NCBI GenBank assembly: GCA_964475405.1
Contig: CAYYWX010000001.1
Location: forward strand, 6,333-70,332
Source: an uncultured Verrucomicrobiota bacterium
GTDB taxonomy: Bacteria > Verrucomicrobiota > Kiritimatiellia > JAAZAB01
Direction of reading: 5' to 3'
Length of the DNA: 64,000 nt
Positions 14,524-36,567 of this stretch are shown here, in pieces. How positions within the stretch are numbered: the stretch's first letter is position 1; each line of letters starts with the position of its first letter. The notes under the pieces were generated by a model that saw only the letters and a program-made list of their open reading frames with translations, was not told the DNA's origin and made no database searches. The translations under genes were made by a program, and so were the position numbers.

Positions 14524-15327
14524 TTAAAACTGGTAGGAAACGCCGATGCTGAGCACCGGGTAGAACCGGAATTTGTCGGCCTGGTTTTGCGCGTCGTCCT
14601 CTTCCTCCTGGAGGTCCGCGAGGAAAGTCGCGTCTTGCGACTTGGTGCCGTCCGCGCTCAGACTGACGCTGGGCGTGCCCTGGAACACGACGCCCAGGTC
14701 AAAGACAAAATTCCAGGCGGTATCCGGGCCGCCGACGGCGTTGCCGAACCCGATGCCGACATAAGGCCCGAAATTATTGAATTTTACCGAGCCGCTCAAA
14801 GTGCCGACTTCCTCGGGCGTGTAAAAATGCTCGCCGATCTTCTGGACGGCGTTCAGCGTGGCGTCCAGATCGCCGCGGTTGCGATTATAAAGCACGCCGC
14901 CGCTGACCCGGAAATTGTTGCCGAACGGATGCCAGTCCAGCATCAGCGGCACGGAAGCCCATTTGACATCCACCTTGTATTCCAGGTCATGGATGGTAGT
15001 GGTGAACCGCAGCGGCAGGTAATTGCCACCCACGCGCAGGTTGAGATATGATTCGACCACCCCGACCGTTACTTCCACTCCCGGGCCAAGCGTGCCGATC
15101 TTGATCGCCGCCCCGATCCAGGGCGGATAATATTCCGTTTCTTCCATTTCAAGGTCGCCGGTCTTGATCGTGGTCGTGGTGGTGGTGATGACCGTTGTTT
15201 TTTTCGCGGCGGAAGAATTGCCATCCGGGACCTCGCGCCCGGCTGCCGCGGCGTTTTGCACCAGAAGCCCGCCCGGGGCGATTAATCCGGCAAGAACAAG
15301 AGCGAGACAAGCGCGATTATATTGCAT
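14524..15327 (-). CDS. Outer-membrane beta-barrel protein (OmpA-like/opacity-family 8-strand barrel)
   Basis: Signal peptide (ACLALVLAGLIAPGGLLVQNAAAA), alternating amphipathic beta strands with aromatic girdle residues, and a C-terminal ...VSYQF ending in Phe. Confidence 0.7.
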   Translation of the reverse strand: MQYNRACLALVLAGLIAPGGLLVQNAAAAGREVPDGNSSAAKKTTVITTTTTTIKTGDLEMEETEYYPPWIGAAIKIGTLGPGVEVTVGVVESYLNLRVGGNYLPLRFTTTIHDLEYKVDVKWASVPLMLDWHPFGNNFRVSGGVLYNRNRGDLDATLNAVQKIGEHFYTPEEVGTLSGSVKFNNFGPYVGIGFGNAVGGPDTAWNFVFDLGVVFQGTPSVSLSADGTKSQDATFLADLQEEEDDAQNQADKFRFYPVLSIGVSYQF

Positions 15328-15351
15328 GAGTTCCTTTTTGGTTAATATTCA

Positions 15352-18300
15352 CTACTTGATTTCAATCTTCATGATCCTGGTCTCATACGGCGCGAGGGTC
15401 ATGGTCGGGCTATCTTCCTTCGCGGCGGCGTTGTAATTCCAGATCGCCTTGATCGGGGTGGCTGCCGGGGCGGTCAACTTAACCTCCACACTCTTGCCGG
15501 TGGTGTTGGCCAGGTAGGTCAGGAGCGCGCCCTCCGCGGACACGGTGCGCGATTCAACGCCCGGCGGGTAGCCGCCGTCCGGCGTGAAGGCCCGGACCGG
15601 ACGCTGGAAACGCAAGTCATCCATCAACCGGTCCAGGAGCGCCCGGCGGCTGTCCACCGTGAGCTGGGCCGCAAGGTATATGACGCGCCCCCTGCCGACC
15701 GGGCGCGAGAGGATTGCCGGCTCCCCGCTTCCCGCGTAGGTTGCCATGACCTGCCAATCCGCGGAGGCCTTCACGCTCTGGATGACGCCCGCCGCGTCAA
15801 GGTTCTCCGGCGCGGCGGCCAGGAATCCGCTCTTCTTGACGGCAACCGTGCGCTTGGGTTCCTTTGAGACGATCGTCTTGGCGACCGGTCCCTGGATGAA
15901 ATCCAGCTCGCCGGTCTGCGCGATGCCCGGCTTGGCTTCCCCGGCCTTGATCTCGGGCAGTTCCTCGGCAAGCAGTTCCAGGCCGAGGTTCCCCAGGTAA
16001 TCGCGCTTGCGGTTGTATTCGTCGGCCACGAGCGAGGTCGGCGTAATGAGCAATGTGCCGCCGCCGGCGACCCATTCCTTAAGCCTGACAAAGACATCCT
16101 CTTCCACGTAGCGGCAGCCGGGGATGACGACCAGCTTGAAGTTGGCCGGGATATTCTCGCGGACGCGGCGCGAGGAAACGAAACCGACCGGCGCGTCAAG
16201 CCGCACCGCGGCCTGGTAGGTCTTCTCCATCTCCAGCGCATAGGGCGTCTTGTGTCCCTGGGTCCGGGGATCGAGCTGGATCAGGGTGGCGCGTGGATAT
16301 AAAAGGGCTATTTCGGCCGGGGCATCCGGGAACGGCGCGATCTGTTTCGCGAGGCGGCGGACATCCAGGGCCGTGCGCATGACCGTGCCCACTTCCTCCA
16401 GTGAGATTGTCGCGGAATGCCGCAAGGCGCTGTTGTCAAACTCCCCTTCACCCGGCGGCCACCACCAGTAATCCATCATTCCGCAGCCGTGGAGGAACAT
16501 GAGGAAGCAGGTGTTCGGCAAGGCATGATATTCCGGGTCAAGGATGGGGACCGGACGGGAGACGAGGTGCCGCTGCAAATCCATCACGCTCGTTACGCCC
16601 AGCGCCCGGCTGCCGGTTTCCGACAGGAATATGTCGTTGACCCCGTCGCGGATCAGGCCCTCCTCGTCAATGCCCTGCCGCCAGAATCCGCTCCCGAACG
16701 GTTCGCCGCCGCCGGTCGTCAGCGGGAGGCCCGGCGCGGCCTTGTTGACTTCACTCTTGGCCCATTTCATGTAATCCGTGAAGCGCCAGAGGTTGAAATC
16801 GCCGAAGTCGTAATACTTGGCCGGGTTGGGTTCCGTCTTGTCCGGCGCATACTCCGACAGGTTAATCTCCTTGAAATCCTTGAAGGCCGTCTTCCAGACG
16901 GCATTGAGTTTTTCCACGCTCCCATACTTGCGCCCGAGCCACTGGCGGAAGAGGTCGGCGGAATAAACGTCGTAATTCACGTAAGAATATTCAAAACCGA
17001 CGTTCACGTAAAGGTTGCCGGGCTTGACGCCCTGGCGCTGGCCGTAGCGGGCAATGGATTTGGCGATGGCCTCGCGCATCTTCGGGCTATCAAGGTTAAT
17101 GACGCAACGCTCCCTGCTGCCGCCCGCGGAGTACTGGTCGCAGATGATGTGTCCGCACCAGCCGCCGTCATAGACGCGGTGGGTCTCGGGATATTTCTGG
17201 TAGGCCTCCCAGACCGGCGTGCTCTGCACGTCGTAGCGGCTCGCGCCGACGGCCGAAATGCTGTAATGATGCGTCCGCGGGGAAAACCAACGTATCAGCT
17301 CGCCGGAGTTATGATACTGCATTGAGAAAAGTATTTTCGGCTCGTCGCCCTCGCAGAAGTAGCGTCCCTTCAATTTTAGTTTCGTGAAGTCCGGGTGGGG
17401 CGGCACCTTGATGTCCGGCGCCTTGCCGGCCATGATGTCCTTCAGGCGCCGGGCGGCCACTTGGCTGGATTGAAGAATGTAGGCCGCGTTCGTCCCGCGC
17501 TGTCCGAGATGGTTTGGCAAATCCCAGCGCACATTAAAGGCAAGAGCGCTTAAAACAATTGGAATCTCGTCGTAAAGAGTTTCAACGCCCCTGGTCTTGG
17601 CCTCCGCCACGACGGTTTTCAACTCCGCCAGGGCCTGCTCCGCCTCGGCGCGGCGCGCGCCCTGCTCCGGCGTTTCCGTCACCAGCGGCGGATCAGCCTT
17701 CATTTCCCGCCCGGTCTCGGCCAGCGTTACGCCGCACTTGGCGTCAAGGTCCATTCCCGTAAGGCTCACATCGTCCACCCAGACACGGCCCCGGCCCTTG
17801 CCGGACAACTGGATGAAGACTTTCACGGCGGGGCACTTGTCGGGCACGTCAAACACCAGCTCCGCCCTCGTCCAGGCGTAGGTGCCCGGCAAGGTCATGA
17901 CCGCGTCGGGAAGGGGTCGCTCGCCGGAATCCGTCACCAATATGCTGGGCACGCCCTGGCCCTGGCTCTGCACGTAGGCGGTCAGTTTCAGGCGGGTGGG
18001 ATATTGCACCGGGATGAGCGGCGAGAAAAATCCGATTTTGCACGGGCCCCTGGCGTCAAGCATCGCCGAGGCGCTGCCGGAATAAACGGCCTTCTCTCCC
18101 TTCCCCAGGAAACTCCGCCCTTCCCAGCGCCGGGCGTTCCACCATTTGAACGGATTGCCCAGGGCATCGGGCGTTTGCAGATCCTCAAACGATCCGTTGA
18201 CCAGGAGTTCCTTGTAGGGCATTTTTACCATGGCGGCCTTAGGAATCACGGGAGGGTTCTCGGAAAGGTACATGTTGTCAATATAGACCATGATCTCTTG

Positions 18301-18813
18301 CGGGCAATTCTTGTAGAGGCAGATGAACGCCACGTTGCCGCGGTCCAATTCAACCCGGTTCTTGAGATCATCCAGGTCAATGGTGAGCGTATTGACCCCC
18401 GGGCCGAGGATGAACGATGATTCGGCCTTATGGAACGCCTTGTCGCGGATCCAGATTCCGAACTCGGCCGGCAGCTGGCCATCAAGGAAGACGTCAACGT
18501 TCAGATACCTGAACCCGGTCCAGTCGGAAGGCATCTTGTCCGTCAGGATATTGGACCACTCGGGCTTGTTGGTGTAATAAACCTTCAGCGACTTTTTGCC
18601 CTGTGTGACGTGCCTGGCAGAAACTTCAAACGGCGAATGATTTTCGCTTTTCCAGATGGAAGCATCCTCAAAATCAACGATGCTTTTTACGCGGCCCACG
18701 CCGGACGGCGGGGCATCCGCCCCGGACGCGCAAATTGCCCCAATTCCCAGGACAGTGATCATGGCCAGTATTCTCCCCCGCAGTTGCATATGATTATTCC
18801 TTTCAAAGGACAC
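15352..18813 (-). CDS. Large secreted glycoside hydrolase, GH42-like beta-galactosidase architecture with N-terminal beta-sandwich (CBM-like) extension
   Basis: Signal peptide. The segment FRQWLGRKYGSVEKLNAVWKTAF resembles the conserved GH42 motif (F..WL..KYG....LN.AW). A C-terminal glutamine-amidotransferase-like trimerisation-type segment (VRLKEWVAGGGTLLITPTS). Assignment to GH42 is by motif recall only. Confidence 0.6.
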   Translation of the reverse strand: MSFERNNHMQLRGRILAMITVLGIGAICASGADAPPSGVGRVKSIVDFEDASIWKSENHSPFEVSARHVTQGKKSLKVYYTNKPEWSNILTDKMPSDWTGFRYLNVDVFLDGQLPAEFGIWIRDKAFHKAESSFILGPGVNTLTIDLDDLKNRVELDRGNVAFICLYKNCPQEIMVYIDNMYLSENPPVIPKAAMVKMPYKELLVNGSFEDLQTPDALGNPFKWWNARRWEGRSFLGKGEKAVYSGSASAMLDARGPCKIGFFSPLIPVQYPTRLKLTAYVQSQGQGVPSILVTDSGERPLPDAVMTLPGTYAWTRAELVFDVPDKCPAVKVFIQLSGKGRGRVWVDDVSLTGMDLDAKCGVTLAETGREMKADPPLVTETPEQGARRAEAEQALAELKTVVAEAKTRGVETLYDEIPIVLSALAFNVRWDLPNHLGQRGTNAAYILQSSQVAARRLKDIMAGKAPDIKVPPHPDFTKLKLKGRYFCEGDEPKILFSMQYHNSGELIRWFSPRTHHYSISAVGASRYDVQSTPVWEAYQKYPETHRVYDGGWCGHIICDQYSAGGSRERCVINLDSPKMREAIAKSIARYGQRQGVKPGNLYVNVGFEYSYVNYDVYSADLFRQWLGRKYGSVEKLNAVWKTAFKDFKEINLSEYAPDKTEPNPAKYYDFGDFNLWRFTDYMKWAKSEVNKAAPGLPLTTGGGEPFGSGFWRQGIDEEGLIRDGVNDIFLSETGSRALGVTSVMDLQRHLVSRPVPILDPEYHALPNTCFLMFLHGCGMMDYWWWPPGEGEFDNSALRHSATISLEEVGTVMRTALDVRRLAKQIAPFPDAPAEIALLYPRATLIQLDPRTQGHKTPYALEMEKTYQAAVRLDAPVGFVSSRRVRENIPANFKLVVIPGCRYVEEDVFVRLKEWVAGGGTLLITPTSLVADEYNRKRDYLGNLGLELLAEELPEIKAGEAKPGIAQTGELDFIQGPVAKTIVSKEPKRTVAVKKSGFLAAAPENLDAAGVIQSVKASADWQVMATYAGSGEPAILSRPVGRGRVIYLAAQLTVDSRRALLDRLMDDLRFQRPVRAFTPDGGYPPGVESRTVSAEGALLTYLANTTGKSVEVKLTAPAATPIKAIWNYNAAAKEDSPTMTLAPYETRIMKIEIK

Positions 18814-18840
18814 CTTACCAGTTTATGGCCGGGAAGCGAA

Positions 18841-20472
18841 TTATTTTCCCGGGCCGCCGATGCAATACAGATACCTCTGCGCCCGGTAGAAGATATTGTT
18901 GCCGTCAAAGAACGGGGTGCTCACCGTCCCCTCAAGCGTATTGTTCCCATAGTAGTAATTGATGCGCTGGTCGATGGTATTGCGTCCGACTTCCTTGTAT
19001 TCCCGGCCCGGCTCAAGGATCAAGGTCGTCCCGAAGTTGCCGACCAGGAATATTTTCCCCCCGGCCAGGGCCGGCGAGGCGGCCATCCCGCAGCCATAGG
19101 GCCGGTCATTGCGCAACGGCTCATTGCCGAAGTCGAGATTTTTGCTGTAAACGACCTTTTCCGTCAGGACATCGCAGACGAATAACAACATTTGGGGACC
19201 CAGCGCCGGTTTACCTTTGCTAGGCATGATCGGATTGTTGCCGCAGACATAAAGCAACCCGTCGTGATAAAGCACCGAGGGCACCACGTGGCGTCCGCCG
19301 TCGGGCGGGACCAAGGCTGTTCCCTTGATTACCGGCTTGAACGGCGCGTCGGCCTTTTCGGGCAATTGATAATAACGCACCGGGCTGCCGTTGTTCGCTG
19401 TGCTGACGCCGCCCATGCCCTCCATCCAGAAAACAAATCCGCCGCCGAACACCGGCGATCCCTTGCCGGTATGTATGAGGGCGCCCTTGGAAAAACAGAC
19501 ACCGTCCGAGGCGCGGATCAGGCTGCCGTCGCCGGCGGCGAACACCTTTTCACCCCCAATGACCGAGCTGACATGGGAGGCAAACCACCAGGCACCGCCC
19601 TTGAGGTCCGTTCTCCAGGCGTCCTTGCCGGTTTTCTTGTCAAAGGCCAGGTATTGCCGGCCGACATAAGTGATCACCAGGTCGCCGACCAGCAGGGGTG
19701 AACCGTAATGGCCGTGTTCCTGCGGCACAAGCTTGTCATAACGGATCCATTGGCGGTTGCCGTCAAGGTCAAAGCAGGCCGTCACGCCCCAGCCGTTCCA
19801 GGCAAAAACAAATTTTCCGTCGGAGACCGGGGTGGCGGCCATGAATCCGCCCTCACCCCCTATTCCGCTCTTATAGTTCTTGTCCAAGTTGCCGGCGGCG
19901 ACGAGGAGTTTGATCACCTCGCCATTCATCACCCCGTCAATCTTGGATATTTCCCCGCCCAATTGGAAAACTCCATTCGTTCCGGGATCGGTTATTTTCG
20001 CAAGGAGCGCATCGCGCTGTTGCGCCTGCTGGTCCAGCTTGTCAAAGACCTCCTTGTTCGCTTCGCGTTCTTCCTTCGTCGCGGCGTCATAGGGACTGAC
20101 CGGCTTGACCCACAGGATTTTACCCGTGAGTTTATCCGCGCAGATCAATTCATAGTTGTTGCCGGTGGCAAAGAGTTTGTCGCCGACCGCGATCACGGAG
20201 CTGGGAGAGTCAAATGGCATAATGGTCCGCCAGGCGATATTAGTCCCCTTGCCGTCCTTCAGGCTCCAGTTCATGGGCGGGGTGGCGCCGGAAAATTTTC
20301 CCGTGCCGTCCCCGCGCCAGCCGACCGGCTGTTCGGGCGACGGGCGGAAGTCCGGCGAACCCAGCAGCGCGTCCTTGGCCGCGACCGTTGTTGAAACGCC
20401 GAAGATTAAAACCGCGAAAGCCAGGCCGGCGGCCTGGATCGTTCTTCTCGTCTTGTTCGGGTCAATTTTCAT
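18841..20472 (-). CDS. Secreted PQQ-like beta-propeller repeat protein, paralog 1 (BamB/PQQ-repeat superfamily)
   Basis: GGGAGA RBS. Signal peptide, then the family N-motif LGSPDFRPSPEQPVGWRGDGTGKFSGATPPMNW. PQQ-like repeats (A.DK.TGKILW). Its C-terminal ~65 aa are near-identical to paralog 2. Confidence 0.8.
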   Translation of the reverse strand: MKIDPNKTRRTIQAAGLAFAVLIFGVSTTVAAKDALLGSPDFRPSPEQPVGWRGDGTGKFSGATPPMNWSLKDGKGTNIAWRTIMPFDSPSSVIAVGDKLFATGNNYELICADKLTGKILWVKPVSPYDAATKEEREANKEVFDKLDQQAQQRDALLAKITDPGTNGVFQLGGEISKIDGVMNGEVIKLLVAAGNLDKNYKSGIGGEGGFMAATPVSDGKFVFAWNGWGVTACFDLDGNRQWIRYDKLVPQEHGHYGSPLLVGDLVITYVGRQYLAFDKKTGKDAWRTDLKGGAWWFASHVSSVIGGEKVFAAGDGSLIRASDGVCFSKGALIHTGKGSPVFGGGFVFWMEGMGGVSTANNGSPVRYYQLPEKADAPFKPVIKGTALVPPDGGRHVVPSVLYHDGLLYVCGNNPIMPSKGKPALGPQMLLFVCDVLTEKVVYSKNLDFGNEPLRNDRPYGCGMAASPALAGGKIFLVGNFGTTLILEPGREYKEVGRNTIDQRINYYYGNNTLEGTVSTPFFDGNNIFYRAQRYLYCIGGPGK

Positions 20473-20567
20473 AATTATTCATCTCCCTTTCATGTTGTTC
20501 ATTTCTTCACACCGCTCGGAAACGGATTTACTTGTTTTTTAGAACTCCTCAGTTAATGTGGGCTAAT

Positions 20568-20658: not shown

Positions 20659-22743
20659 TCATAACTGAGGAGTTATGTTTTTCCGGTACGCGGCGATATA
20701 ACGTTTCAGCCGCGAGCGGTATCCCTCCAAATCGAGCAACTGCTCATCCAGGATCAGGTAAGTCATGTCCGCGGTGCGGTTGGCAAAGTGCCGCGCCCGG
20801 TCGCGGGCGTGCAAATATCTCCGGCCGGGCAAGGACAGTCCCTTGGGCAAACGGGTCCGTTCCCAGAGACGGACAAGGCCGGAGAAGACCCGCTCGCGGT
20901 CGGCGAGGTGATCGCCGATCATCCGCGCGGCCCGGCGCAGATGCCCCAGCGCCGCGCGCCGGTCGGAAAAATGTTCCCCGGACGCCAGGCAAACGGCGTG
21001 TTCCAGTTCCCCGAGCATCAGGATCAGCCCGGCATTGTGGCGCATCAGTTCCGCGACGGACCGCATCAACTCAAGGTCGTGGCGATTCCGCGCGCCGCGC
21101 GAGAGGTTGTCGGCAATGATCGCCTCCGCCCGGAGAAGGGCGTGCTGTTCCTGGAGCGCGCGTTGGGTCAGCGCCCGGTAACGGTTTCGCCAGAAATTGC
21201 TGATCTCAAGGCCGGCGCGCGGGAAATCCGGAAGGTGGATCTTGCCCACGTCGCCGTGATGCCACACGTTGCGCTGGAAAGTGTCGTAATAAAATTCCGC
21301 CGAGTTTTGCAGAAGCGCATAAAGTTCCGGCAGGTCGCGGCCCTCCGGGCCAAAATAGCGCAGGAAAAACCGGCGCGTCCAGCCGGCAATATCGCGTTCT
21401 CGGGCATTCCAGGAGAATTCCGCCCCGCAGACGAAACGCCCCATCCACATCCGGGTGTGAAGGCCCGAGTCGTCCCACGATGTAATGATCGCGCCCTCCA
21501 CGGCCCCGGTCCGCGCCGCGGCGGCGATTGAGGCCGTCTCTTTGAACGTCCCCTGCCGCTCGCATCCCGGCTCGTTCTGCCACATGGACCGCTGCACCCA
21601 GGGAAAATGCGGCAGGAAAAGCGGGGTGATGCCGGGGTTCGGCGCGTAAGTCCAGAGCGCGCGCCCGGCGGCGCGCGCCGCCGCCAAGCTTTCATTATCG
21701 CCGAAAGCCACGCTGACCATGGACTCCGAGGCCGGGTGTTTTGCTCCGGCCTGCCACTGGCCGCCCCACGAGATTGCTTTCCGTCCGCGCTTTTCCACGT
21801 GCGCGACGCAGCGGCTGAGAAAGTCCTGCATCAGCTCGTCCTTCCCCGCCACCCCGGCCCGCGCCTGGCATCCGCACTCCGCGCCCTGGCCCAGTTCGTA
21901 AGTCTCGTCGCAGCCGATGTGAATAAACTCGCTGCCCGGGGTGGCGGCGATGGCCTCGTCCCAGAGATCAAAGAGAAGGCGTAACGAGCCATCCTTCAGC
22001 GGGCAAAATTCCCAGTTGGAATCGGAAATCTCCCGCAGATGCCGGTGCCGGGGATGCTTGAGGATGAACGACACGTGCCCGAGTCCCTGGACGAGCGGCA
22101 CCAGCTGGACGTGATGCTTGAGCGCCAGGCGGGCAAAGGCGCGCACCTGGCCCGGCGTGAAGGCGCCGGGAGCGCCGATTTCCGGGTGACGGCGGTAGGC
22201 GAACTTGTCCTCCCATTCCCAGACCAGCACGTTTATTTTCCAGGACGCGAGTTGGAGGATGAGGTCCCGAACATAGGCAGCGGTGGGCTGGTGGTGCTTG
22301 GTGTCGTAATGAATGGCGCGATATTTCAGGTCGGGCCAATCGTTGATTTCCAGGCACGGGGCCATGACGGCGTCGCCTTCCCGGCGCAAGCACTGTCGCA
22401 GGGTCTGCATGGCATAATAGACGCCGGCGGCATCGCCGCCCTCCAGGACGATTTGTCGCGGTTGAATGGTCAAGCCATAGCCCTGCGGCGGGCGTCCACT
22501 GCCGCGCTTGATGATGAGCTTCACGCGTCCCGGACCGGACCGGCCTTTCGCCACACGCGCCTCCAGCCCGCACTCGGAGCGCAGGCAGCGGCCCAGGTAC
22601 CCGGCCGAGAACCGGTCTTCAGCCGGGGCATCGGGAGCGAGCACGATTGAGATTCCCCGGGAGAGGCGGCAAAAACCTCCGGCCGCCCGGACTTCCTGCG
22701 GCTCGGGAATCAGCGCCAACTCTGGCATTTCGCCGCGTTTCAT
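20659..22743 (-). CDS. Glycoside hydrolase family 20-like beta-N-acetylhexosaminidase
   Basis: GH20 catalytic (beta/alpha)8 signature H-x-G-x-D-E present as HIGCDETYELGQG, with the upstream GH20b-like N-domain. Its ATG overlaps the stop of paralog 2 (ATGA), so the two are translationally coupled. Confidence 0.7.
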   Translation of the reverse strand: MKRGEMPELALIPEPQEVRAAGGFCRLSRGISIVLAPDAPAEDRFSAGYLGRCLRSECGLEARVAKGRSGPGRVKLIIKRGSGRPPQGYGLTIQPRQIVLEGGDAAGVYYAMQTLRQCLRREGDAVMAPCLEINDWPDLKYRAIHYDTKHHQPTAAYVRDLILQLASWKINVLVWEWEDKFAYRRHPEIGAPGAFTPGQVRAFARLALKHHVQLVPLVQGLGHVSFILKHPRHRHLREISDSNWEFCPLKDGSLRLLFDLWDEAIAATPGSEFIHIGCDETYELGQGAECGCQARAGVAGKDELMQDFLSRCVAHVEKRGRKAISWGGQWQAGAKHPASESMVSVAFGDNESLAAARAAGRALWTYAPNPGITPLFLPHFPWVQRSMWQNEPGCERQGTFKETASIAAAARTGAVEGAIITSWDDSGLHTRMWMGRFVCGAEFSWNARERDIAGWTRRFFLRYFGPEGRDLPELYALLQNSAEFYYDTFQRNVWHHGDVGKIHLPDFPRAGLEISNFWRNRYRALTQRALQEQHALLRAEAIIADNLSRGARNRHDLELMRSVAELMRHNAGLILMLGELEHAVCLASGEHFSDRRAALGHLRRAARMIGDHLADRERVFSGLVRLWERTRLPKGLSLPGRRYLHARDRARHFANRTADMTYLILDEQLLDLEGYRSRLKRYIAAYRKNITPQL

Positions 22744-24445: not shown

Positions 24446-26623
24446 TTACTGTTTCTTCCCCTGTTCCTCAATGCAATACAAATTTTCCTCCCCGCGAAAG
24501 TACATGCGATTGCCGTCAAAGACAGGCGTGCTGGTCATGGTATTGTCCTGGTACTCGGGACAGTACTTCCTGTTGCACCAATATCCATAGTTGCCGAGCG
24601 CCCGGCCGCTTCTGGCAAGGTATTGAATCCGGTTGCGGGCGACTTCTTCATACGTGCGCCCCGGCTTGATGACTATCGTCACGCCGGTCGCTCCCATCAG
24701 GTAGATGTGCCCGCCGGCAAGAGCCAGGCTCGCGCCGAAATAACTGCGTTGATGCGCGGCCGCAAAAAGATCAATCGGCAATTCCTTCTGATACACGCCT
24801 TCCATGGTCACCACGTCGAAAACCTTCAACACTCCATCGCCGCTCACGGTATACCCCAGGCCATCATAAATTAACGGGGACGTCACAAGACTTTTGCCCT
24901 GGTAGAAGTTCAATCCCAACGGCAACTGCTCCGGCAATTTCACGCTTTGCCCTGGTTGTTTGATCGCCAGGCCGTTGTTGGTGGTTGCCTCGACCGTATA
25001 TTTAAGGACACCATCCGGAGAGTTTTGCCATGCCGCATCCCCCTCAAAGATCGGCGTGGAAACCCAGTTGCCCCAGCCTTGCGAGCCGAAGACCTGTCCA
25101 TCCCGGGCGCGCACGAGAATATTGCCGCCGGGACACAGGACGTATTCAGTATCTTTGAACACCGCCCGGCTGAGCGAACCGCCCCAATTCCGCCAGCCCT
25201 TGGTTTTACTCGCGTTTTCAAGACCCACGCTCCACTTCGCCGAGCCGTCGGAGAGGTCAAAGGCCGTGATGGTGCCGTCCATAATGACAAACTTCCTGTC
25301 GGCAATGACCGGCGCGCTGTAGTAGCCATGATGCTGGTACTTCGGCCTTTCGTAGCGTATCCAGCGGCGTTTGCCGTCCAGGCCGTAACAGGCTCTTGTT
25401 CCCCGTGTCAGCCATACAAAAACGCCGCTGCCTTCGGAGGCCGGCGTCGGAATCGTCCACCAGTCCGGCTCGCCCTGCTCGTCGGGCCGCTTGTACTTCA
25501 CGCGGTCCACCTCAAGCATAATTTTGTCCAGCTCGTTTTCAAGCTTAGATTCTTCTTTCACCGCGGCCTCGTCGGGCTGTTTTCCAAGCAAATAGTCTTG
25601 ATAGAAAAGCTCGCGCTTGGCCGCCAGCGGATCCAGCTTGGCGAAAACTTCCGGCTTGGCCTTGCGTTCCTCGGGCGTGGCGGCATCGTAGGGACTGTTC
25701 TGCCGGATCCAAACGATCTTGCCCGTCTTCTTGTCAACGCAGACCAGGTTGTAGGGATGGGCCATGGTGAACAGGAAATCGCCCGCGATGATCGGGTTGG
25801 CCTGGGTCAGCCCCGGCATTCGAACTATCCAGGAAATATTCGTGGAAGCATAGTCGCGCGGTTCTTCCGACGGCCAGAACCGGCAGCGCACAAAACACGT
25901 TTTCGGAAAATCAAAATTGCCCATGCCCATACGGGGCGTCAACTTGAACAGGAAACGGTTCCAGCCCGCCTGAAGCTGCAATTCCAGGGTGGGCCCCATG
26001 TCGCCGCCTCCGTTATTGACGGGGGTGTCGGGATTGGTGTATTCCCTCGCGCCGTTCAGCCACAACACCAATCCCCTGGCATGGTTCAGATGGAACCAGA
26101 TCTTGGCCGGCTTCTCAACATACAGGCACGCCTGCGCATACGCCGCCTGATCATTGGTCATAATTCCCAAGGGGCGAAAAAGGTCTATAAAGGAGTCTTC
26201 CACCTTGACCATCTGCCAAATTGCGTTGCCAAGTTTGTCGCCTTCCCGCGGTGCGAACGACGCTTCCCCGGGCATCACTTCCTGCGCGATCGCGTTGGTC
26301 AGACCGGCGCACGAAAACGGGCCGGCCACAAGCCACTCCGTGAAAAATCCCGTCGTGGCCGGGGTTGCGCCGGCGGATGAATTGTCCTTCGGCGCGGCGG
26401 CCGCGCATTTCAAGTCGCCAAGTTGCTTCAGGCTGCGCCCCCAATGCACGGGAGGATTGGCGCCAGGATATTTTCCCGTGCCGTCCCCGCGCCAGCCGAC
26501 CGGCTGCTCGGCGGATACTCGGAAATCGGGCGAACCCAGAACCGCATCTTTGGCCATGATTGTTGAGATGTTGAATGTTAAAAGTGCCAACGCCAAACTG
26601 GCCGTCATAATAATCTTTTTCAT
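24446..26623 (-). CDS. Secreted PQQ-like beta-propeller repeat protein, paralog 3, with inserted beta-sandwich (galactose-binding-like/CBM-like) module
   Basis: Probable true start at MKKIIMTASLALALL (track ORF extends to 26737). N-motif LGSPDFRVSAEQPVGWRGDGTGKYPGANPPVHW. A ~200-aa insert (FFTEWLVAGPFSC...WFHLNHARGLVLWLNGAREY) lies before the propeller repeats (VCVDKKTGKIVWIRQNS). Confidence 0.75.
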   Translation of the reverse strand: MKKIIMTASLALALLTFNISTIMAKDAVLGSPDFRVSAEQPVGWRGDGTGKYPGANPPVHWGRSLKQLGDLKCAAAAPKDNSSAGATPATTGFFTEWLVAGPFSCAGLTNAIAQEVMPGEASFAPREGDKLGNAIWQMVKVEDSFIDLFRPLGIMTNDQAAYAQACLYVEKPAKIWFHLNHARGLVLWLNGAREYTNPDTPVNNGGGDMGPTLELQLQAGWNRFLFKLTPRMGMGNFDFPKTCFVRCRFWPSEEPRDYASTNISWIVRMPGLTQANPIIAGDFLFTMAHPYNLVCVDKKTGKIVWIRQNSPYDAATPEERKAKPEVFAKLDPLAAKRELFYQDYLLGKQPDEAAVKEESKLENELDKIMLEVDRVKYKRPDEQGEPDWWTIPTPASEGSGVFVWLTRGTRACYGLDGKRRWIRYERPKYQHHGYYSAPVIADRKFVIMDGTITAFDLSDGSAKWSVGLENASKTKGWRNWGGSLSRAVFKDTEYVLCPGGNILVRARDGQVFGSQGWGNWVSTPIFEGDAAWQNSPDGVLKYTVEATTNNGLAIKQPGQSVKLPEQLPLGLNFYQGKSLVTSPLIYDGLGYTVSGDGVLKVFDVVTMEGVYQKELPIDLFAAAHQRSYFGASLALAGGHIYLMGATGVTIVIKPGRTYEEVARNRIQYLARSGRALGNYGYWCNRKYCPEYQDNTMTSTPVFDGNRMYFRGEENLYCIEEQGKKQ

Positions 26624-26667
26624 TTTTTCCTTTCTATCCAAGGTGGCATATAGCCGCGACCGAATTT

Positions 26668-26913: not shown

Positions 26914-28356
26914 TCATCGCACTCCATAAATTGTGCCCGCCCGGATGTTTTCATAGGCGCCCATGTCAACGGTGCCGTAGCGGATGCGCGCGCGGCCGTC
27001 CAGATCCCTGCTCGTGACGCTTCCATCCCTCATCCAGGAAAGATTCGTCCCGGCGTTGACGCACGGCGAGCGCCCTGAAAGGCGGTAATTACCGGCAACA
27101 TGGTTCGTCCCGTAGTCGCTGCCCTTATCCAGCAACATCGGATCATCGGTGATATTCCCGGCCCCGGCCGCGGCGGGCGCCGTGCAGCTATTTACGAAAG
27201 TGCATCCGGTCCAGTTTGAGATGCTGGCGCCGCCGGAATTGAAATATACGATGCAATTAGACAGAGTGCCGCCATACACTCCGCCGCCGCCGGTGCCGCC
27301 GGTCGCCTTGTTACCGACCAGTGTGCAATTATACAGCTTGCTTGCGGCTGATGATCCGGCGCCGCCGCCATAACCGGCATGGTTGCCAGTCAATAAACAG
27401 TTATACAAAGTGCTGTCATACGCCCCGCCGCCGGCCATGCTGTCTGACGCCCTGTTGCCGGTCAACGTGCAGTTATACAAAATGCAAGAGTGAACGCCAC
27501 CGCCATAGTTTTCAGTCGCCTGATTGCTAATCACCGAGCAGTTATACAGGGTGCCACCATATGCCCCGCCACCAGCGCGCGCCGTATTGGCCGTAAGCGT
27601 GCAATTAGACAAAACGCAGCCGCGGCCACCGCCGCCGTACTTTCCAAGGTTGCCGGTCAACGTGCAGTTAACCATGATGCTGTACGCCGCGCCGCCGCCA
27701 TGGGTGGCATTAAGAGCAGGCGCGCCATATGTCATATTGCCGATCAGCGAGCAGTTATGCAACGTGCCATACCATACTCCACCACCTCCATAGTTGCCGG
27801 CCAATCCGCCGTAGGCCGAGTTGCCGGTTATGATGCAATTGGATATCACCGGGGTCGTGATGGCGGGACAATACACGCCGCCGCCGCAGCCGGACAGGCT
27901 CTCCACGCTCAACGTGGCGCCATTGGTGATTGTAAAACCGATCAAGGAAGAATTGGCGGCCATATAAACGCAACGAACAGCATTCGGGCCGTTGGTATTG
28001 CCGTCCGAGGCCCAGGCGCCCCTGATGATCGTATTTGTCGGATTGTTGTCCTTGCTCCTGACAGTGATCGCCTTGGTGATCGCAATCCGGTTGGTCAGGA
28101 TCGAGCCGGCGGGGTAATTCGTGACACCGCCGGAGGCATATATCCCATTGCTGACCCAGATCGTGTCGCTCGCCGCGGATTTGTCTATTGCGCCCTGGAG
28201 ATTGTTGGTGGCGTTCGCCCAGCCATTTGTCCCCAGGCCGGTCCCATTCGTCGCCACATACCAATCAACCGCCGGCGTTGTCCTGAGCAAACTAATCAAT
28301 AAAAACGCCGCCAGGCATACTTTCCACCGCATGCTACTTTTCGTTTTCATTATCAT
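26914..28356 (-). CDS. Secreted right-handed parallel beta-helix repeat protein (pectate-lyase-fold, glycine-rich LYNC(T/S)L(T/I)GN repeats)
   Basis: Signal peptide. About ten tandem ~22-aa repeats (GGGAY..TLYNCTLTGN...). C-terminal ...GTVDMGAYEN ending characteristic of this family. Confidence 0.7.
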   Translation of the reverse strand: MIMKTKSSMRWKVCLAAFLLISLLRTTPAVDWYVATNGTGLGTNGWANATNNLQGAIDKSAASDTIWVSNGIYASGGVTNYPAGSILTNRIAITKAITVRSKDNNPTNTIIRGAWASDGNTNGPNAVRCVYMAANSSLIGFTITNGATLSVESLSGCGGGVYCPAITTPVISNCIITGNSAYGGLAGNYGGGGVWYGTLHNCSLIGNMTYGAPALNATHGGGAAYSIMVNCTLTGNLGKYGGGGRGCVLSNCTLTANTARAGGGAYGGTLYNCSVISNQATENYGGGVHSCILYNCTLTGNRASDSMAGGGAYDSTLYNCLLTGNHAGYGGGAGSSAASKLYNCTLVGNKATGGTGGGGVYGGTLSNCIVYFNSGGASISNWTGCTFVNSCTAPAAAGAGNITDDPMLLDKGSDYGTNHVAGNYRLSGRSPCVNAGTNLSWMRDGSVTSRDLDGRARIRYGTVDMGAYENIRAGTIYGVR

Positions 28357-28359
28357 TAA

Positions 28360-28925: not shown

Positions 28926-29789
28926 ATGGCAGGCAGAGCGCTTGAACAGGACGACTGGCTCAGGCTCAACAGCCGGTTGCTGTGGATATATGACGAGGCT
29001 GTCCCTGAAACAGGCAGCAGGAAGTTCAGCTCGCCGAATTATTCGGCCTGGCTTGTCAGGCGCGGGCACGTGAAAGTTTCATGGCCCGGACATGAACCAA
29101 TCGTAATCGGCGGCGGGTCCTGGGTGATTCCTCCGCTCAACGTGGAAAGATCGCAGTTATTTTCGCGCGATGCGGCCATTCTTTCCATGTGCTTCCAGCT
29201 TGAATGGCCGAATTACAGCCCGCTTTTTCCGCTGAAAAAACTGGTTTCCTTCCGGTCGTCATCCGCGCCGGAACTTGAGAAACATGCGCTGGATCTTTTG
29301 AATGTTTCCGGCGGACGCCTGACGTTCCCCTGGTGGCGCGAGGACGGATTCATGGACTTCGGGAAACATTCCGCTTCGCAGGCAAAATTCTGGCAATGGC
29401 TCGCCCGCTGGTCCTCCGTCATGATCAAGAACGGCGTGGAGCCGTTTATTCCCGATAAAATGGACAGCCGGGTGGCGGGTGCCATCAAGATGATTGACGG
29501 CCTCTCCTTCACGGGTAAAATTCCTTACGGCAACCTGGAAAAAATCGCCGGGCTGGGAAAAGTTCAAATTGACCGGCTTTTCCTCAAAAACATCGGGATG
29601 ACGCCCCGCAAATATCTTGAAAGAAGGGTCTTGGAATCCGCCAGGGAACTGCTCCAGACAACCGGAATGTCGGTCAAGGAAATAGGCTTCAAGCTGGGCT
29701 TCGCCTCCGCCTCGCATTTCTGTTTTTGGTTCAGGAAGCGCGCCGGTATCTATCCGCTGGATTTCAAGCTCAAGGGATGGCCGTTTTAA
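28926..29789 (+). CDS. AraC/XylS-family transcriptional regulator
   Basis: C-terminal double HTH (LFLKNIGMTPRKYLERRVLESARELLQTTGMSVKEIGFKLGFASASHFCFWFRKRAGIYP) and an N-terminal ligand-binding-like domain. Divergently oriented to the hydrolase/PQQ gene array. Confidence 0.8.
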   Translation: MAGRALEQDDWLRLNSRLLWIYDEAVPETGSRKFSSPNYSAWLVRRGHVKVSWPGHEPIVIGGGSWVIPPLNVERSQLFSRDAAILSMCFQLEWPNYSPLFPLKKLVSFRSSSAPELEKHALDLLNVSGGRLTFPWWREDGFMDFGKHSASQAKFWQWLARWSSVMIKNGVEPFIPDKMDSRVAGAIKMIDGLSFTGKIPYGNLEKIAGLGKVQIDRLFLKNIGMTPRKYLERRVLESARELLQTTGMSVKEIGFKLGFASASHFCFWFRKRAGIYPLDFKLKGWPF

Positions 29790-32133: not shown

Positions 32134-32395
32134 TGTCGATCCTTCCGTTATTCCGCGTGGTTTATTCCCAAGCCTACTCTGTGAAATAATTTTCAGATGC
32201 TACCCCCTCCGCCAAGCGTGTCAATGTTATTCTTCACCCCGCGGACTGAATATGATTGACGGGGAGATGCAGAAAGAATAGTTTTCAAAAAAATTTGGAC
32301 GTCCGCCGGCGCATCCGGGTAAGGACACTTATGAAAACATCCGTCGTGGCGTCATCCGCGGTTTCCGCTGAAAAATAACAGGGGGATTATTTACT

Positions 32396-34495
32396 ATGAT
32401 CATTTGGAACATGACCAAAACAATGACTTTGGCAACCGGCCTGGCGTTTGTTCTCCTAATCCACGCTGTCCGAGGTGTTGCGGCAGGAGAGGCGCAATTG
32501 GGTTCCCCGGATTTCCGCCCTTCGCCGGACCGACCGATCGGCTGGCGCGGGGATGGTTCCGGGAAATATCCGGCGGCCGAGCCGCCGCTTCACTGGGGAC
32601 GCGTGGCGAAATCGGTGAAGGAATTATGCGCCCAGTCCGCCAAGCCAAAGGAGGGCGACAAGGGGAAACCGATACCCGACGGCGTCATCCGCGAATGGAT
32701 GGTTCTGGGACCGCTGCCGGCGCCGGAGGGCAGGAATTTCACGAATGAACTCATCAGCGGGGAAGCCGATCTCAATCCGGCCGAGAACGACAAAATCGGG
32801 GAAAACGCCTGGAAAAAGGTTTTGCTGGAAACATCCTGCCTTGACCTTGCGACCTTGTTTGACCTTGCCGGTAAAACAAACCCGGTCGTCGCCTACGCCT
32901 GCGCGAACTTATGCTCCCCCGGCGGCCAGCCGCTCATCCTGAATTACATGCACGGGGGGATGACTCAAATCTGGCTCAACGGCAAAATGATCTACAACTG
33001 GAACCCCGCCGCCAATTCCACCGTGCGCTTGCAGCTCAACCCGGTAAAAGGCTGGAACCGGCTGGTCATCAAGATCAGCGCCAAGGGCTACATGCGCCCG
33101 GTGATCTTCGGCGCCCTTCCCGGCGAGTACGAGAGCAAGAATATCGCCTGGACCGCCGTCTTTCCGGCCGCGGGCCACAGTTCGCCGCTGATTGTCGGGG
33201 ACAAGATTTTTGCCATCGCCGAGGGCGGCCGCCTGTGCTGCCTGAACAAGGCGGACGGCAGGATCCTCTGGGTCCGTTCCAGCACTTACTTTGACGCGGC
33301 GACGGAGGAGGAGAAGAAGGCCAACCCGGACCTTTTCAAGGAACTGGAACCGCTCGCGGCAAAACTCAGGGAACTGGATGACGCCTGGGTGGCATCGCCG
33401 CTGCCGGATACGCTGAAAGAGCGCGGGAATATAGAGACCCTACTCTACAAGGGCGTTGTCAAAGTGAACAAGGAAAAATACCGCATGGCCGACGGCAGCG
33501 AGGCCGGCTACAGCGCCCCCTCCCCGGTCAGCGACGGACAGCGCGTCTACGCGGCTTTCGGCTCAGGCCTGGTTGTCTGCTATGATTTTGAAGGCAACCG
33601 CAAGTGGCTCACGCTCGAAAGCCACCCGACCGTGGAACACGGTTACACCTCTTCACCGCTGCTGGTGGACGGCAAATTGATCGTCTATTTCGGCAACCTG
33701 CGCGCGCTGGACGCGAAGACCGGCGCGGTGGCCTGGCAGCGGCCGCGCTACCTGCTCACGGGCGACAGCCTGACATATTGCGTGTTTCGCGGGACCGGTT
33801 GCGTGCTGCCGGCCGGCAATGACAAGGTGGCCTATTTCCTGAACGGCGATTTCGCGCGGGTGAGCGACGGCAAGATGCTCTGTGCGGACTTCTGGAAATT
33901 CGGCGACAACCGGATCGCAAGTCCTGTTGTCGATCGCGGTGTGATATATAAAATCGCCTCCAATAGTGGCGGCGTCACGGCCATCAAGCTTCCGGAACCG
34001 GCCGGGGATAAAATACTGCCGGAGATTGTCAAAAAGATTGCCTTCGACACCGGGAAGTTTCCCGTCAAGTTCTTTAATACCTACTACAATGCCTCGCCCT
34101 TGCTCAATGAAGGCCTTATGTACTGCGTGGACCAGGACGGCGTCCTAACGGTCGTGGATGTGGAAAAAGGAGAAGTGCTCTACCAGAAGACGCTTGATCT
34201 GGACCTGTACATGCACCACAACTTCGGTCCCGGCCGGGGCGGCGCCTCGTCCAGCCCGACGCTCGCCGGCAAGTATATCTACATCTTCGGCAACCAGGGA
34301 ACCTGCCTTGTCATCGAGTCGGGCCGCACGTACAAGCAGGTCGCGAAGAACCGTGTGGAATTCATTTACGGCGCGCGGGAATGGTGGGCGCGCCAGGAAA
34401 TCACGATGTCGTGCCCGGTCTTTGAGGGCCGGCGGATGTACTTCAGGGCGGACGCGAACCTGTACTGCATTGAAGAAAAAGGAACTGACAAATGA
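32396..34495 (+). CDS. Secreted PQQ-like beta-propeller repeat protein, paralog 5 (plus strand), with inserted beta-sandwich module
   Basis: AGGGGGA RBS. Signal peptide. N-motif LGSPDFRPSPDRPIGWRGDGSGKYPAAEPPLHW. Insert (IREWMVLGPLPAPEG...IWLNGKMIYNW). PQQ repeats (CCLNKADGRILWVRSST). The stop overlaps the next gene's start (ATGA). Confidence 0.75.
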   Translation: MIIWNMTKTMTLATGLAFVLLIHAVRGVAAGEAQLGSPDFRPSPDRPIGWRGDGSGKYPAAEPPLHWGRVAKSVKELCAQSAKPKEGDKGKPIPDGVIREWMVLGPLPAPEGRNFTNELISGEADLNPAENDKIGENAWKKVLLETSCLDLATLFDLAGKTNPVVAYACANLCSPGGQPLILNYMHGGMTQIWLNGKMIYNWNPAANSTVRLQLNPVKGWNRLVIKISAKGYMRPVIFGALPGEYESKNIAWTAVFPAAGHSSPLIVGDKIFAIAEGGRLCCLNKADGRILWVRSSTYFDAATEEEKKANPDLFKELEPLAAKLRELDDAWVASPLPDTLKERGNIETLLYKGVVKVNKEKYRMADGSEAGYSAPSPVSDGQRVYAAFGSGLVVCYDFEGNRKWLTLESHPTVEHGYTSSPLLVDGKLIVYFGNLRALDAKTGAVAWQRPRYLLTGDSLTYCVFRGTGCVLPAGNDKVAYFLNGDFARVSDGKMLCADFWKFGDNRIASPVVDRGVIYKIASNSGGVTAIKLPEPAGDKILPEIVKKIAFDTGKFPVKFFNTYYNASPLLNEGLMYCVDQDGVLTVVDVEKGEVLYQKTLDLDLYMHHNFGPGRGGASSSPTLAGKYIYIFGNQGTCLVIESGRTYKQVAKNRVEFIYGAREWWARQEITMSCPVFEGRRMYFRADANLYCIEEKGTDK

Positions 34496-36567
34496 ACCTG
34501 ACGCTGGTCGGCGACCATAGCAATGATTTGTGTTCCGTTCTGCGGCAAAACAAGGTGGATTTCGAGCATTGCGCTTCCGCGCGGGAAGCAATCGCGAAGG
34601 CCGGCAAGGGCGCGGGGATTATCATATTGGCCGACGGCTATCCGGAGAAGACCACGGAGCTGGACACAACCCTCCTGGAAAATGCCGCCGCGAAAGGCGC
34701 GCGACTTTACGTTGAATTCCCCGCGCGGTTACCCGGCACGGGAATGACGAAAGCCGGTGAAACGCGAAAATCCGGATGGGAGCGCGCGGTTGTGTCCTCG
34801 GACACCTTTGGCCCGGAACTGAAAAAATTGCGGATACTGATGATCCACGGCTGCCGTTTTGTTGACGTCAAGGCGGATAACCCGCACATCGCGCTGGCGC
34901 GCGTTGCCGGATTTGACACTGCCGTTTTCGGCCTGCCCGGCAATGCCGCCCCTATCCTCTTTGAACATCCAAGCGGCAATCTCCTGGTGGCAACCACCAA
35001 GCTAAGCCAATTTATGACAGGCCGATACGCTCCGCCGGATGCATGGGCAAGGGTCTGGCAGTGGATTCTCGGCTGGCTTCTCCCGGGGCGGACACTCCCG
35101 CAACTGCGCTGGACGCCGACAGTTCGTCCATCCTATCCGGCCGATACGACCCTTCCGCGCGATGTCGAGGAAGAGGCCTTCCGGCGCGGGGTCCGGTGGT
35201 TCGGCAAGGCCAGGCTGTTCATCCACCCCGACTGGCAGGACGAGGCCCAACAACGCCTGGAAAAATTTCACGATGGAACCGGACCGGGACCGGAAAAAAC
35301 CCGGCCGGTCGGCGACGGCTCTTGCGGCATGATTGAGGGCGCCAGTTCAAAGATTTACCCGGACGGCACCCAGGACTGGCGCTATCATGTGCGCAACGAC
35401 TGCATGGGCGAGACTTCGATGGCGATGGCTTTCGCCGGGACGCTGGCGGATGATAAAGGCGCATCCAAATTGGCCGGGAATCTAAATAACTTCATCTATT
35501 TCAACTCCATCTTCGCCAAGGGACCGCGGGCGAACCCGGAAAGCCCGTCCTACGGCCTGATACCCTGGATGTCGCAGCCGCCCGCAAGCGGCGTCTATTA
35601 CGGCGATGACAACGCGCGCTCCATGCTCGGCACGATGGCCGCCTCGGCCCTGCTGCATACCGACCGCTGGGACAAACCGCTCCTGAAATGCCTGCTTGCG
35701 AATTTGCGCACAACCGGCCCGCTCGGGTTTCGGAACAACTCGCTCGACGAGCGCGACCTCCAGGAAAAGGGCTGGCGATATTTCTGGGAAACGGAGCGCG
35801 CTAATTACGCCCCGCACTACGAAAGCTGGCTGTGGGCGACTTTCCTCTGGGCCTATCGCCATACCGGCTTCAAGCCTTTCCTTGACAGGGCCGTCACCGC
35901 GATCCGCCTGACCATGGAAGCCTACCCGGACGAATGGCGCTGGGCGAACGGGATCCAGCAGGAACGGGCGCGCATGTTGTTTCCGCTGGCCTGGCTGGTG
36001 CGCGTGGACGACAACGACCTGCACCGCCGCTGGCTGCGCGTCATGACCGGGGAACTGCTGGCGCGGCAGGATGCCTGCGGCGCCATCGCCGAGGAGGTGG
36101 GTTCCGCCGGCCATGGCGCCTACGGTCCGCCCCGGACAAACGAGGCATACGGCACGAGCGAAGCCCCGCTCATCCAGCAGAACGGCGACGCGCTTTGCGA
36201 CCTGCTCTACACTTCCAATTTTGCTTTCGCCGGACTGCACGAGGCCGCCTCCGCCACCGGCGATTCATTCTACTCCGGGGCGACCGACAGATTGGCAAAG
36301 TTCCTTTGCCGGATCCAGGTCCGCTCAGAAACCCAACCGGAATTGGATGGCGGGTGGTTCCGGGCATTTGACTTCAAACGCTGGGATTATTGGGCCAGCA
36401 ACGCGGACCTCGGCTGGGGCGCCTGGAGCATCGAGTCCGGCTGGACGCAGGGCTGGATCACGGCCACGCTGGCGATGCGGCAGATGAAGACTTCCTTGTG
36501 GGACCTGACCGCCGGCACCGGGATAAAGAGTCATCTGGACGAGCTGCTTCCGGTGATGCTGCCTTGA
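34492..36567 (+). CDS. Hypothetical protein, probable (alpha/alpha)6-toroid glycosidase-like fold; translationally coupled to paralog 5
   Basis: ATGA overlap with the upstream gene. No signal peptide. The Trp/aromatic-rich C-terminal half (WLWATFLWAYRHTGF...WASNADLGWGAWSIESGWTQGWI) is reminiscent of six-hairpin glycosidases, but no family could be assigned. Confidence 0.6.
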   Translation: MNLTLVGDHSNDLCSVLRQNKVDFEHCASAREAIAKAGKGAGIIILADGYPEKTTELDTTLLENAAAKGARLYVEFPARLPGTGMTKAGETRKSGWERAVVSSDTFGPELKKLRILMIHGCRFVDVKADNPHIALARVAGFDTAVFGLPGNAAPILFEHPSGNLLVATTKLSQFMTGRYAPPDAWARVWQWILGWLLPGRTLPQLRWTPTVRPSYPADTTLPRDVEEEAFRRGVRWFGKARLFIHPDWQDEAQQRLEKFHDGTGPGPEKTRPVGDGSCGMIEGASSKIYPDGTQDWRYHVRNDCMGETSMAMAFAGTLADDKGASKLAGNLNNFIYFNSIFAKGPRANPESPSYGLIPWMSQPPASGVYYGDDNARSMLGTMAASALLHTDRWDKPLLKCLLANLRTTGPLGFRNNSLDERDLQEKGWRYFWETERANYAPHYESWLWATFLWAYRHTGFKPFLDRAVTAIRLTMEAYPDEWRWANGIQQERARMLFPLAWLVRVDDNDLHRRWLRVMTGELLARQDACGAIAEEVGSAGHGAYGPPRTNEAYGTSEAPLIQQNGDALCDLLYTSNFAFAGLHEAASATGDSFYSGATDRLAKFLCRIQVRSETQPELDGGWFRAFDFKRWDYWASNADLGWGAWSIESGWTQGWITATLAMRQMKTSLWDLTAGTGIKSHLDELLPVMLP

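Follow-up and report, generated by a model that had tools for sequence, protein, structure and literature searches.

Five secreted beta-propeller paralogs in a carbohydrate-enzyme-rich locus of an uncultured Verrucomicrobiota bacterium: candidate extracytoplasmic ligand-binding proteins

Introduction

What might five related, exported beta-propeller proteins be doing among glycosidase genes? The question is raised by a 22-kb locus (positions 14,524 to 36,567) in a stretch of 64,000 nucleotides (nt) of DNA, hereafter the window, from an uncultured Verrucomicrobiota bacterium of a groundwater metagenome (GenBank assembly GCA_964475405.1, contig CAYYWX010000001.1, positions 6,333 to 70,332 of the forward strand). 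A preliminary description, made from the letters and their open reading frames (ORFs), had taken the locus for a dedicated system in which the propellers are coupled to hydrolases for the binding, delivery or assembly steps of glycan breakdown, possibly as an analogue of the SusD/SusE-type surface binders of Bacteroidota. We find that the five proteins, P1 to P5, are on sequence criteria a distinct branch of the PQQ_2 superfamily, neither BamB nor quinoproteins, and that their linkage to glycosidases is local to this genome and is not a conserved system. The reading that we favor, with a probability of roughly 0.4, is that they are extracytoplasmic ligand-binding propellers, which here would bind glycans or oligosaccharides near secreted enzymes.

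Bacteria of the phyla Planctomycetota and Verrucomicrobiota rank among the major degraders of complex glycans. To our knowledge these phyla are without Sus-like systems, and the means by which they capture and sense polysaccharides are largely unexplained. The propeller family represents a concrete candidate for glycan capture or sensing in bacteria of the Planctomycetes-Verrucomicrobia-Chlamydiae (PVC) group, and one that is testable by binding.

Results and discussion

The five propeller genes lie where the preliminary description had placed them (Table 1), and their ORFs, PQQ_2 matches, full-length alignment and signal peptides agree that the products are homologous and secreted. For P3 the maximal ORF extends to 26737, yet the ribosome-binding site and signal peptide belong to the ATG at 26623. 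Whole-protein scores against PQQ_2 (PF13360) were 42.2, 43.9, 44.5, 44.8 and 76.6 bits for P1 to P5, all above the gathering threshold of 27.6. The paralogs align with one another across the entire propeller and not merely over a shared N-terminal motif (E 1e-53 to 1e-126 over about 480-760 residues), with identities of 71% for P1/P2, 46% for P3/P4 and 30-35% for the remaining pairs. At the N-terminus of each stands a type-I signal peptide, after which comes the motif LGSPDFRPSPEQPVGWRGDGTGKYP; the conserved N-terminal segment of the propellers reads GWRGDG[ST]G.YP..PP..W (the N-motif). The signal peptides, read by eye, show A-x-A-type cleavage sites in all five proteins and a canonical lipobox in none, there being no signal-peptide cysteine in P1, P3 and P5, while the VLMC of P2 and the FLTC of P4 misfit [LVI][ASTVI][GAS]C. 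P3, P4 and P5 carry an additional segment of about 180-190 residues immediately after the N-motif, which is missing from P1 and P2.

P1 and P2 are a recent duplicate whose nearest relatives outside the locus are about 41% identical. The other three have relatives in other genomes that are closer to them than are their paralogs in the locus: 53% for P3 (P0275), 77% for P4 (P0274, the P4 ortholog in a related groundwater genome) and 74% for P5. The locus thus unites four old subfamilies, namely P1/P2, P3, P4 and P5.

P5 was modelled with AlphaFold2 from an alignment of 108 sequences, yielding an eight-bladed beta-propeller with a predicted local distance difference test score (pLDDT) of 93 and a predicted template modelling score (pTM) of 0.92. 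The chain runs from the signal peptide and the N-terminal segment through a beta-sandwich (residues ~68-245), blade 1 and a two-helix hairpin (298-355) to seven more four-stranded blades, and the N-terminal segment would close the propeller. When conservation is compared with the secondary-structure register of the model, most invariant positions fall in the repeated blade motifs (sP.v.dG.vyv and a.D..tG...W); the remainder lie in the N-motif, in a His-Gly that is almost invariant and precedes one blade, and at a few Arg, Asp and Tyr positions.

The closest folds found for P5 in the PDB by Foldseek are the cofactor-less YxaL, Rv3035 and BamB, together with tetrathionate hydrolase. The alignment with YxaL (Bacillus, 7eq5) and with Rv3035 (the mycobacterial BamB-like FecB-binding protein, 9p3f) is limited to the propeller core, some 330 of the 699 residues; both proteins belong to other phyla and are without the N-motif, hairpin and sandwich. 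Tetrathionate hydrolase (6l8a) is an enzyme of sulfur oxidisers, 12-16% identical to the propeller and found in an unrelated genomic context.

The likeness to BamB (YfgL), the PQQ_2 archetype, suggests one alternative, that the propellers are BamB-like assembly factors or chaperones for the outer-membrane (OM) and secreted proteins of the locus. The PQQ_2 model is that of the BamB family, the fold search places BamB among its best matches, and the block of genes to which three of the propellers belong terminates in g267, which encodes a small OM barrel. However, the BamB equivalog models score the propellers at 14.6-44.3 bits, far below their cutoffs (TIGR03300, 285; PRK11138, 423). BamB is a lipoprotein of about 390 amino acids (aa), whereas the propellers, at 540-740 aa, are 150-350 residues larger, have no lipobox, come in five copies, and add the helical hairpin and, in three paralogs, the beta-sandwich. 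The window does hold a bamA (Omp85/POTRA) - skp (OmpH) - lpxD cluster at 49-3337 (+), which shows the organism to be a diderm with a beta-barrel assembly machinery (BAM); this cluster is unlinked to the propeller locus, 11 kb away, and no bamB-like lipoprotein gene stands beside it. We consider a BamB-like function improbable.

Less probable still, indeed very improbable, is that the propellers are pyrroloquinoline quinone (PQQ)-dependent sugar or alcohol dehydrogenases. Their scores against the curated models are far below the cutoffs (PF01011, 15.4-19.4 bits or no match at all against 26.7; TIGR03075, 21-23 bits against 480), matches of the family profile to solved structures cover no more than single-blade stretches (~30-80 residues), and the vicinal Cys-Cys of P5 is not found in the other four paralogs. 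At the sequence level this reading is already effectively refuted.

The insert of the long-form paralogs offers a hint of a different kind. Modelled alone from 25 sequences it forms a beta-sandwich (pLDDT 92.7), and the best 45 Foldseek matches listed from the PDB all lie within glycosidases. Among them, the K. marxianus glycoside hydrolase (GH) family 3 beta-glucosidase is matched through its PA14 domain (E 7.5e-5, TMq up to 0.53), as are GH31 alpha-xylosidases through theirs, while GH2 enzymes are matched through their N-terminal sugar-binding domain; across the range of matches (E 7.5e-5 to 3e-3, TMq 0.40-0.53) the resemblance is at the level of fold only. The sequence of the insert gave no match to PF07691 (PA14) even at E <= 10 and no significant match to Glyco_hydro_2_N, and its sub-threshold echoes were BetaGal_ABD2 (E 0.02) and GH35 beta-galactosidases (E 0.24-0.34). 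Its WLNG...GWN pattern presumably recalls that of galactose-binding-like jelly rolls. The PA14 domains of GH3 and GH31 and the N-domain of GH2 sit on glycosidases with a (beta/alpha)8 catalytic domain, whereas the insert of P3 to P5 sits on a propeller. Judged by its modelled fold, then, the insert appears to be a carbohydrate-binding-type module, PA14 membership not being implied, and its resemblance to these glycosidase domains makes a glycan-binding role in the locus plausible.

Relatives of the propellers in other genomes provide further evidence for a binding or sensing function. A phmmer search with P5 against 1.84 billion representatives returned 518 proteins at E <= 1e-30 and 2216 at E <= 1e-10. 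Named homologs belong to Planctomycetota (in several cases Phycisphaerae), except for one from a Firestonebacteria metagenome-assembled genome (MAG); Verrucomicrobiota MAGs appear among the genome loci. The subfamily occurs in Planctomycetota and, more rarely, in Verrucomicrobiota. Two classes make up the longer representatives: tandem propellers (1065-1170 aa), and fusions (910-1020 aa) that carry an extracytoplasmic function (ECF) sigma factor (Sigma70_r2 + r4_2) N-terminal to the complete module. A hidden Markov model built from four fused N-termini and run on the family representatives identified 18 ECF sigma fusions among the 150 representatives listed (~12%), P0253, P0256, P0276 and P0322 included, and Pfam Sigma70_r2 and r4_2 both matched in 4/4 fusions tested. 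In all 18, a single 19-residue stretch of strong hydrophobicity separates the sigma domain from the N-motif; the order is sigma2-sigma4, one transmembrane helix, N-motif, sandwich, propeller; a hydrophobic N-terminus is present in 167 of 182 stand-alone members. One locus (L034) contains two fusions (10541-13990 and 14089-17079) and a third propeller gene in tandem. Since a sigma domain and a single transmembrane helix precede the module, the expected topology has the sigma domain in the cytoplasm and the module in the periplasm, and in the fusions the module would act as a sensing or binding domain that lies beyond the cytoplasm. The fusions thus favor a general role in sensing or in binding a ligand over the delivery of substrate to hydrolases that was first proposed for the window.

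Large C-terminal extensions of ECF sigma factors are known from planctomycetes (Jogler et al. 2012, as cited in PMC7826278), and Pinto et al. (PMC7671368) argue that chance insertion into other genes has often given the planctomycetal factors unrelated C-terminal extensions. The 18 relatives resemble these extended factors in having sigma2-sigma4, a transmembrane helix and the module, whereas the window proteins are stand-alone and secreted: all five begin with signal peptides rather than sigma domains, and there is no ECF sigma gene in the locus. No description of this propeller extension of ECF sigma factors was found in the literature searched.

If the propellers and glycosidases formed one dedicated system, as had been supposed, their partnership might be expected elsewhere; this part of the earlier proposal did not hold up. 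None of the window partner proteins recurs by tblastn in 57 genome loci of homologs. Because our own ORF calls in the high-GC MAG loci include many spurious antisense ORFs, we judged flanking genes, as raw counts, by Pfam matches on all candidate flanking ORFs together with precomputed gene calls. On this basis the candidate immediate neighbors at about 45 loci belong to 99 Pfam families with none dominant, the commonest being another PQQ_2 protein (5 members), and with two members each for FGE-sulfatase, AP_endonuc_2, AraC HTH, BNR, FecR, sigma70_r4_2 and Glyco_hydro_42M. Five loci with precomputed annotation were examined: one has an adjacent GH127 gene plus an AraC gene and a heparinase-like gene (L064), a second has AraC genes on both flanks with xylose-isomerase-like and GFO/IDH/MocA genes nearby (L062), a third has rhamnosidase-like and DUF4838 genes 6 kb away (L066), and the other two have nothing carbohydrate-specific. 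The sole recurring partner seen is in a related groundwater genome (L059/L070), where a g480-like beta-helix gene (identity of up to 81% over 80 aa) comes after the tandem propellers P0025 and P0042, which have between them a 95-aa ORF that resembles the C-terminus of the window's beta-helix protein g480. The contigs of the closest relatives are only 3-4 kb long, and a metagenome scan with P5 gave one distant locus only.

These neighborhoods are the ground for a second alternative, in which the clustering with glycosidases is incidental: the propellers would serve PVC bacteria in a general way, as an extracytoplasmic module for sensing or protein interaction with non-glycan ligands, and would have been tandem-amplified in a region that happens to be rich in carbohydrate-active enzymes (CAZymes). 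Of 49 loci, 16 have at least two propeller copies, in arrays of 2-4 and irrespective of context, and other tandem arrays (L027, L034 and L048) lie in housekeeping surroundings, with genes for aminopeptidase, phosphoesterase, MTHFR, PGDH and FAD-oxidoreductase. The heterogeneity of the neighbors and the recent duplication of P1/P2 fit this alternative as well, as does the fact that the closest structural relatives, BamB, Rv3035 and YxaL, act via protein contacts. However, the insert resembles sugar-binding modules, this locus, with five copies that represent four old subfamilies in 22 kb, is the extreme of the distribution, and GH127, AraC, rhamnosidase-like and GH42M-containing neighbors do recur in a minority of loci. 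We hold incidental clustering to be rather unlikely.

The favored reading, that of ligand-binding propellers, would work as follows. The module would be an extracytoplasmic ligand-binding unit and not an enzyme, with the propeller face and the sandwich as binding surfaces. When fused, it would report ligand occupancy to the tethered sigma factor; for the stand-alone forms of the window the ligands would be glycans or oligosaccharides, bound in the periplasm or on the cell surface, and this binding would serve substrate retention or sensing for the secreted GH42-like and beta-helix proteins. The four subfamilies might differ in ligand specificity, and the locus would then represent diversified binding propellers recruited into a CAZyme-rich setting beside an AraC regulator. 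In support, GH42-like, GH20, beta-helix, AraC, GH127, BNR_2 and six-hairpin GH genes all lie within 25 kb.

Several points weigh against this reading. The ligand is inferred; the insert matches known folds only modestly (E 1e-4 to 1e-3, TM about 0.5) and the PA14 model itself does not match; P1 and P2 have no insert at all; and the neighborhoods elsewhere are mostly unrelated to carbohydrates. Given that extensions of planctomycetal ECF sigma factors can be fortuitous, fusion alone is weak evidence of a sensor role; the propeller fusion is nonetheless kept across 18 clusters at 50% identity, even in tandem at one locus. Finally, the nearly invariant histidine (H415 of P5, in an EHGY loop before a blade) could belong to a catalytic site. 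Alternatively, then, the propellers might constitute a new CAZyme family, hydrolase or lyase, in which the propeller is catalytic and the PA14/GH2-N-like domain accessory. We think a catalytic propeller unlikely.

A word is needed on the analogy with SusD/SusE that the preliminary description had drawn. Sus-like proteins were rejected as an identification: the propellers have no lipobox and a different fold, and no TonB-dependent receptor or Plug domain was found among the ORFs of at least 200 aa scanned in and around the locus. SusD, SusE and SusF are lipidated, have other folds and stand beside a SusC-type transporter. The GH linkage of the propellers is not conserved across genomes. The analogy thus fails on lipoprotein signal, transporter and fold, and what may be left is a possible functional one, that of exported non-catalytic proteins among glycosidases and a regulator. 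Of the earlier proposal as a whole, an uncharacterised family in a CAZyme-rich locus stands, and its weaker form, glycan-binding accessory proteins, is plausible; its strong form, a dedicated propeller-hydrolase delivery system, is not supported.

The view that this is not a described system likewise stands as far as the literature searched goes. That literature, whose coverage was incomplete, gave no description of the combination of N-motif, optional PA14-like sandwich, hairpin-bearing propeller and reuse in ECF sigma factors, and nothing specific on PQQ-like propellers in Planctomycetes, on a link between BamB and GHs or on ECF-propeller fusions. This leads us to speculate, as a doubtful proposal, that PVC bacteria have their own class of extracytoplasmic glycan receptor, built from a PA14-like sandwich and an eight-bladed propeller, and used both as soluble binders in CAZyme loci and as the sensor domains of ECF sigma factors. 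If so, the class would be a counterpart of the SusD/E binders and the anti-sigma and hybrid sensors of Bacteroidota made from entirely different parts; the ECF sensor forms would switch on the matching genes, and the window would hold four specificities side by side. Should one of the alternatives hold instead, the result would still matter for annotation, as abundant proteins now labelled "BamB" or "PQQ-binding" are neither.

Other genes and features of the window

Table 1. Features of the propeller locus and of the window 3' of it (positions in the window)
Feature	Position	Strand	Family match or remark
g267, small OM beta-barrel-like protein, signal peptide, C-terminal ...SYQF	14524-15327	-	NCBIfam OMP_CarO
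GH42-like protein, 1153 aa, signal peptide, ~500 aa of extra N-terminal domains	15352-18813	-	Glyco_hydro_42 2.2e-14, Glyco_hydro_42M 3.3e-16
P1, short-form propeller paralog, 543 aa, no beta-sandwich insert	18841-20472	-	PQQ_2 E 1e-10
GH20-like hexosaminidase, 694 aa	20659-22743	-	Pfam GH20b 8.9e-21, GH20 2.7e-12
P2, short-form propeller paralog, 557 aa	22740-24413	-	PQQ_2 E 2.9e-11
P3, long-form propeller paralog, 725 aa, beta-sandwich insert	24446-26623	-	PQQ_2 E 1.9e-11
28-nt element, copy 1, directly 5' of the P3 ribosome-binding site	26640-26667	-	
g480, secreted parallel beta-helix protein, choice-of-anchor-Q C-terminal domain	26914-28356	-	NCBIfam choice_anch_Q 26.9 bits (cutoff 25), para_beta_helix repeat
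28-nt element, copy 2, 15 nt 5' of the AraC start codon	28884-28911	+	
AraC-family regulator, divergent from the seven-gene minus-strand block	28926-29789	+	Pfam HTH_18 1.3e-18
P4, long-form propeller paralog, 740 aa	29911-32133	-	PQQ_2 E 1.5e-11
P5, long-form propeller paralog, 699 aa, the one modelled	32396-34495	+	
g691, no signal peptide, predicted cytoplasmic	34492-36567	+	Start overlaps P5 stop (ATGA)
GH127-like	37879-39819		
WbsX-like	41113-42252		
BNR_2 sialidase-like	43194-44291		
Ceramidase-like	48500-49960		
Six-hairpin GH	49976-51862		
L-fucose-isomerase-like	51995-53413		

Family searches agree with the interleaving of the propellers with GH42-like, GH20-like, beta-helix and AraC genes that had been described, and the barrel at the end of the block is CarO-like below the cutoff: g267 matches OMP_CarO over residues 60-267 at 55.6 bits (E 4.9e-15, cutoff 300) and Pfam OMP_b-brl weakly (E 0.038). 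The GH20-like protein keeps the HxGxDE catalytic motif as HIGCDE, and its C-terminal region of about 340 residues has no family match. Within g480, at 27233-27840, degenerate repeats of 63-72 nt (21-24 codons, of the type GN.A...GGG...S.LYNCTL) are seen at the DNA level.

Two 4-nt ATGA overlaps had been taken to imply 1:1 co-translation of a propeller with an enzyme partner. Both overlaps exist, one between the P2 stop and the GH20 start at 22740-22743 (...AAAATGAAACGC) and the other between the P5 stop and the g691 start at 34492-34495 (...CAAATGAACC). The GH20-like protein begins MKRGEMPELALIPEPQEV, with its GH20b domain from residue 10, and g691 begins MNLTLVGDHSND; both ORFs are maximal and neither product has a signal peptide. 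Since P2 and P5 are exported, each pair would end in different compartments, which makes a 1:1 complex unlikely, and the translational coupling would reflect operon packing.

The seven consecutive minus-strand genes are divergent from the AraC gene, as had been noted in proposing one transcription unit for them. Gaps within the block are 24-32 nt, except for 186 nt (GH20 to P1) and 290 nt (g480 to P3), and these two gaps allow from one to three units. A consensus scan for terminators found terminator-like sites at the rate expected from shuffled sequence and none in the intergenic gaps of the block.

A 28-nt element, AAATTYGGTYGCGGCTATATGCCRCCTT, lies 15-17 nt upstream of both the P3 and AraC starts, its two copies forming an inverted repeat (I1) that is 89% complementary. 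The 16-mer GGCTATATGCCRCCTT occurs exactly at these two sites only in the window, and inside the element is the near-palindrome GCGGC-TATAT-GCCGC. The element was absent from all fetched homolog loci, and a third near-match at 60501, within a coding region, is probably due to chance. It could be a shared operator, promoter or leader element.

The label "six-hairpin-like" earlier given to g691 finds no backing, the protein having no match at all in Pfam or NCBIfam. Its homologs are numerous (>2700 matches), with 57-78% identity across Latescibacterota, Armatimonadota, Acidobacteriota, Hydrogenedentota and Planctomycetota, and some family members have an F5/8 type C domain. Homologs in two other genomes (L067 8001-10073 and L069 8001-10133) adjoin BNR_2, sulfatase, GH32 and GlcNAc-2-epimerase genes, with no propeller near them. 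The family looks like an uncharacterised, strongly constrained cytoplasmic enzyme of carbohydrate processing.

Just upstream of the locus, at 9679-13046 (+), are two ORFs with overlapping stops, of 838 aa and 284 aa, that have no family match, the 838-aa ORF giving weak sub-threshold matches to coiled-coil-type family models only; an NTP_transf_8 nucleotidyltransferase gene (13110-13790) adjoins them. On the 3' side, the carbohydrate-related genes listed in Table 1 show that the CAZyme-rich region reaches well past the locus first reported.

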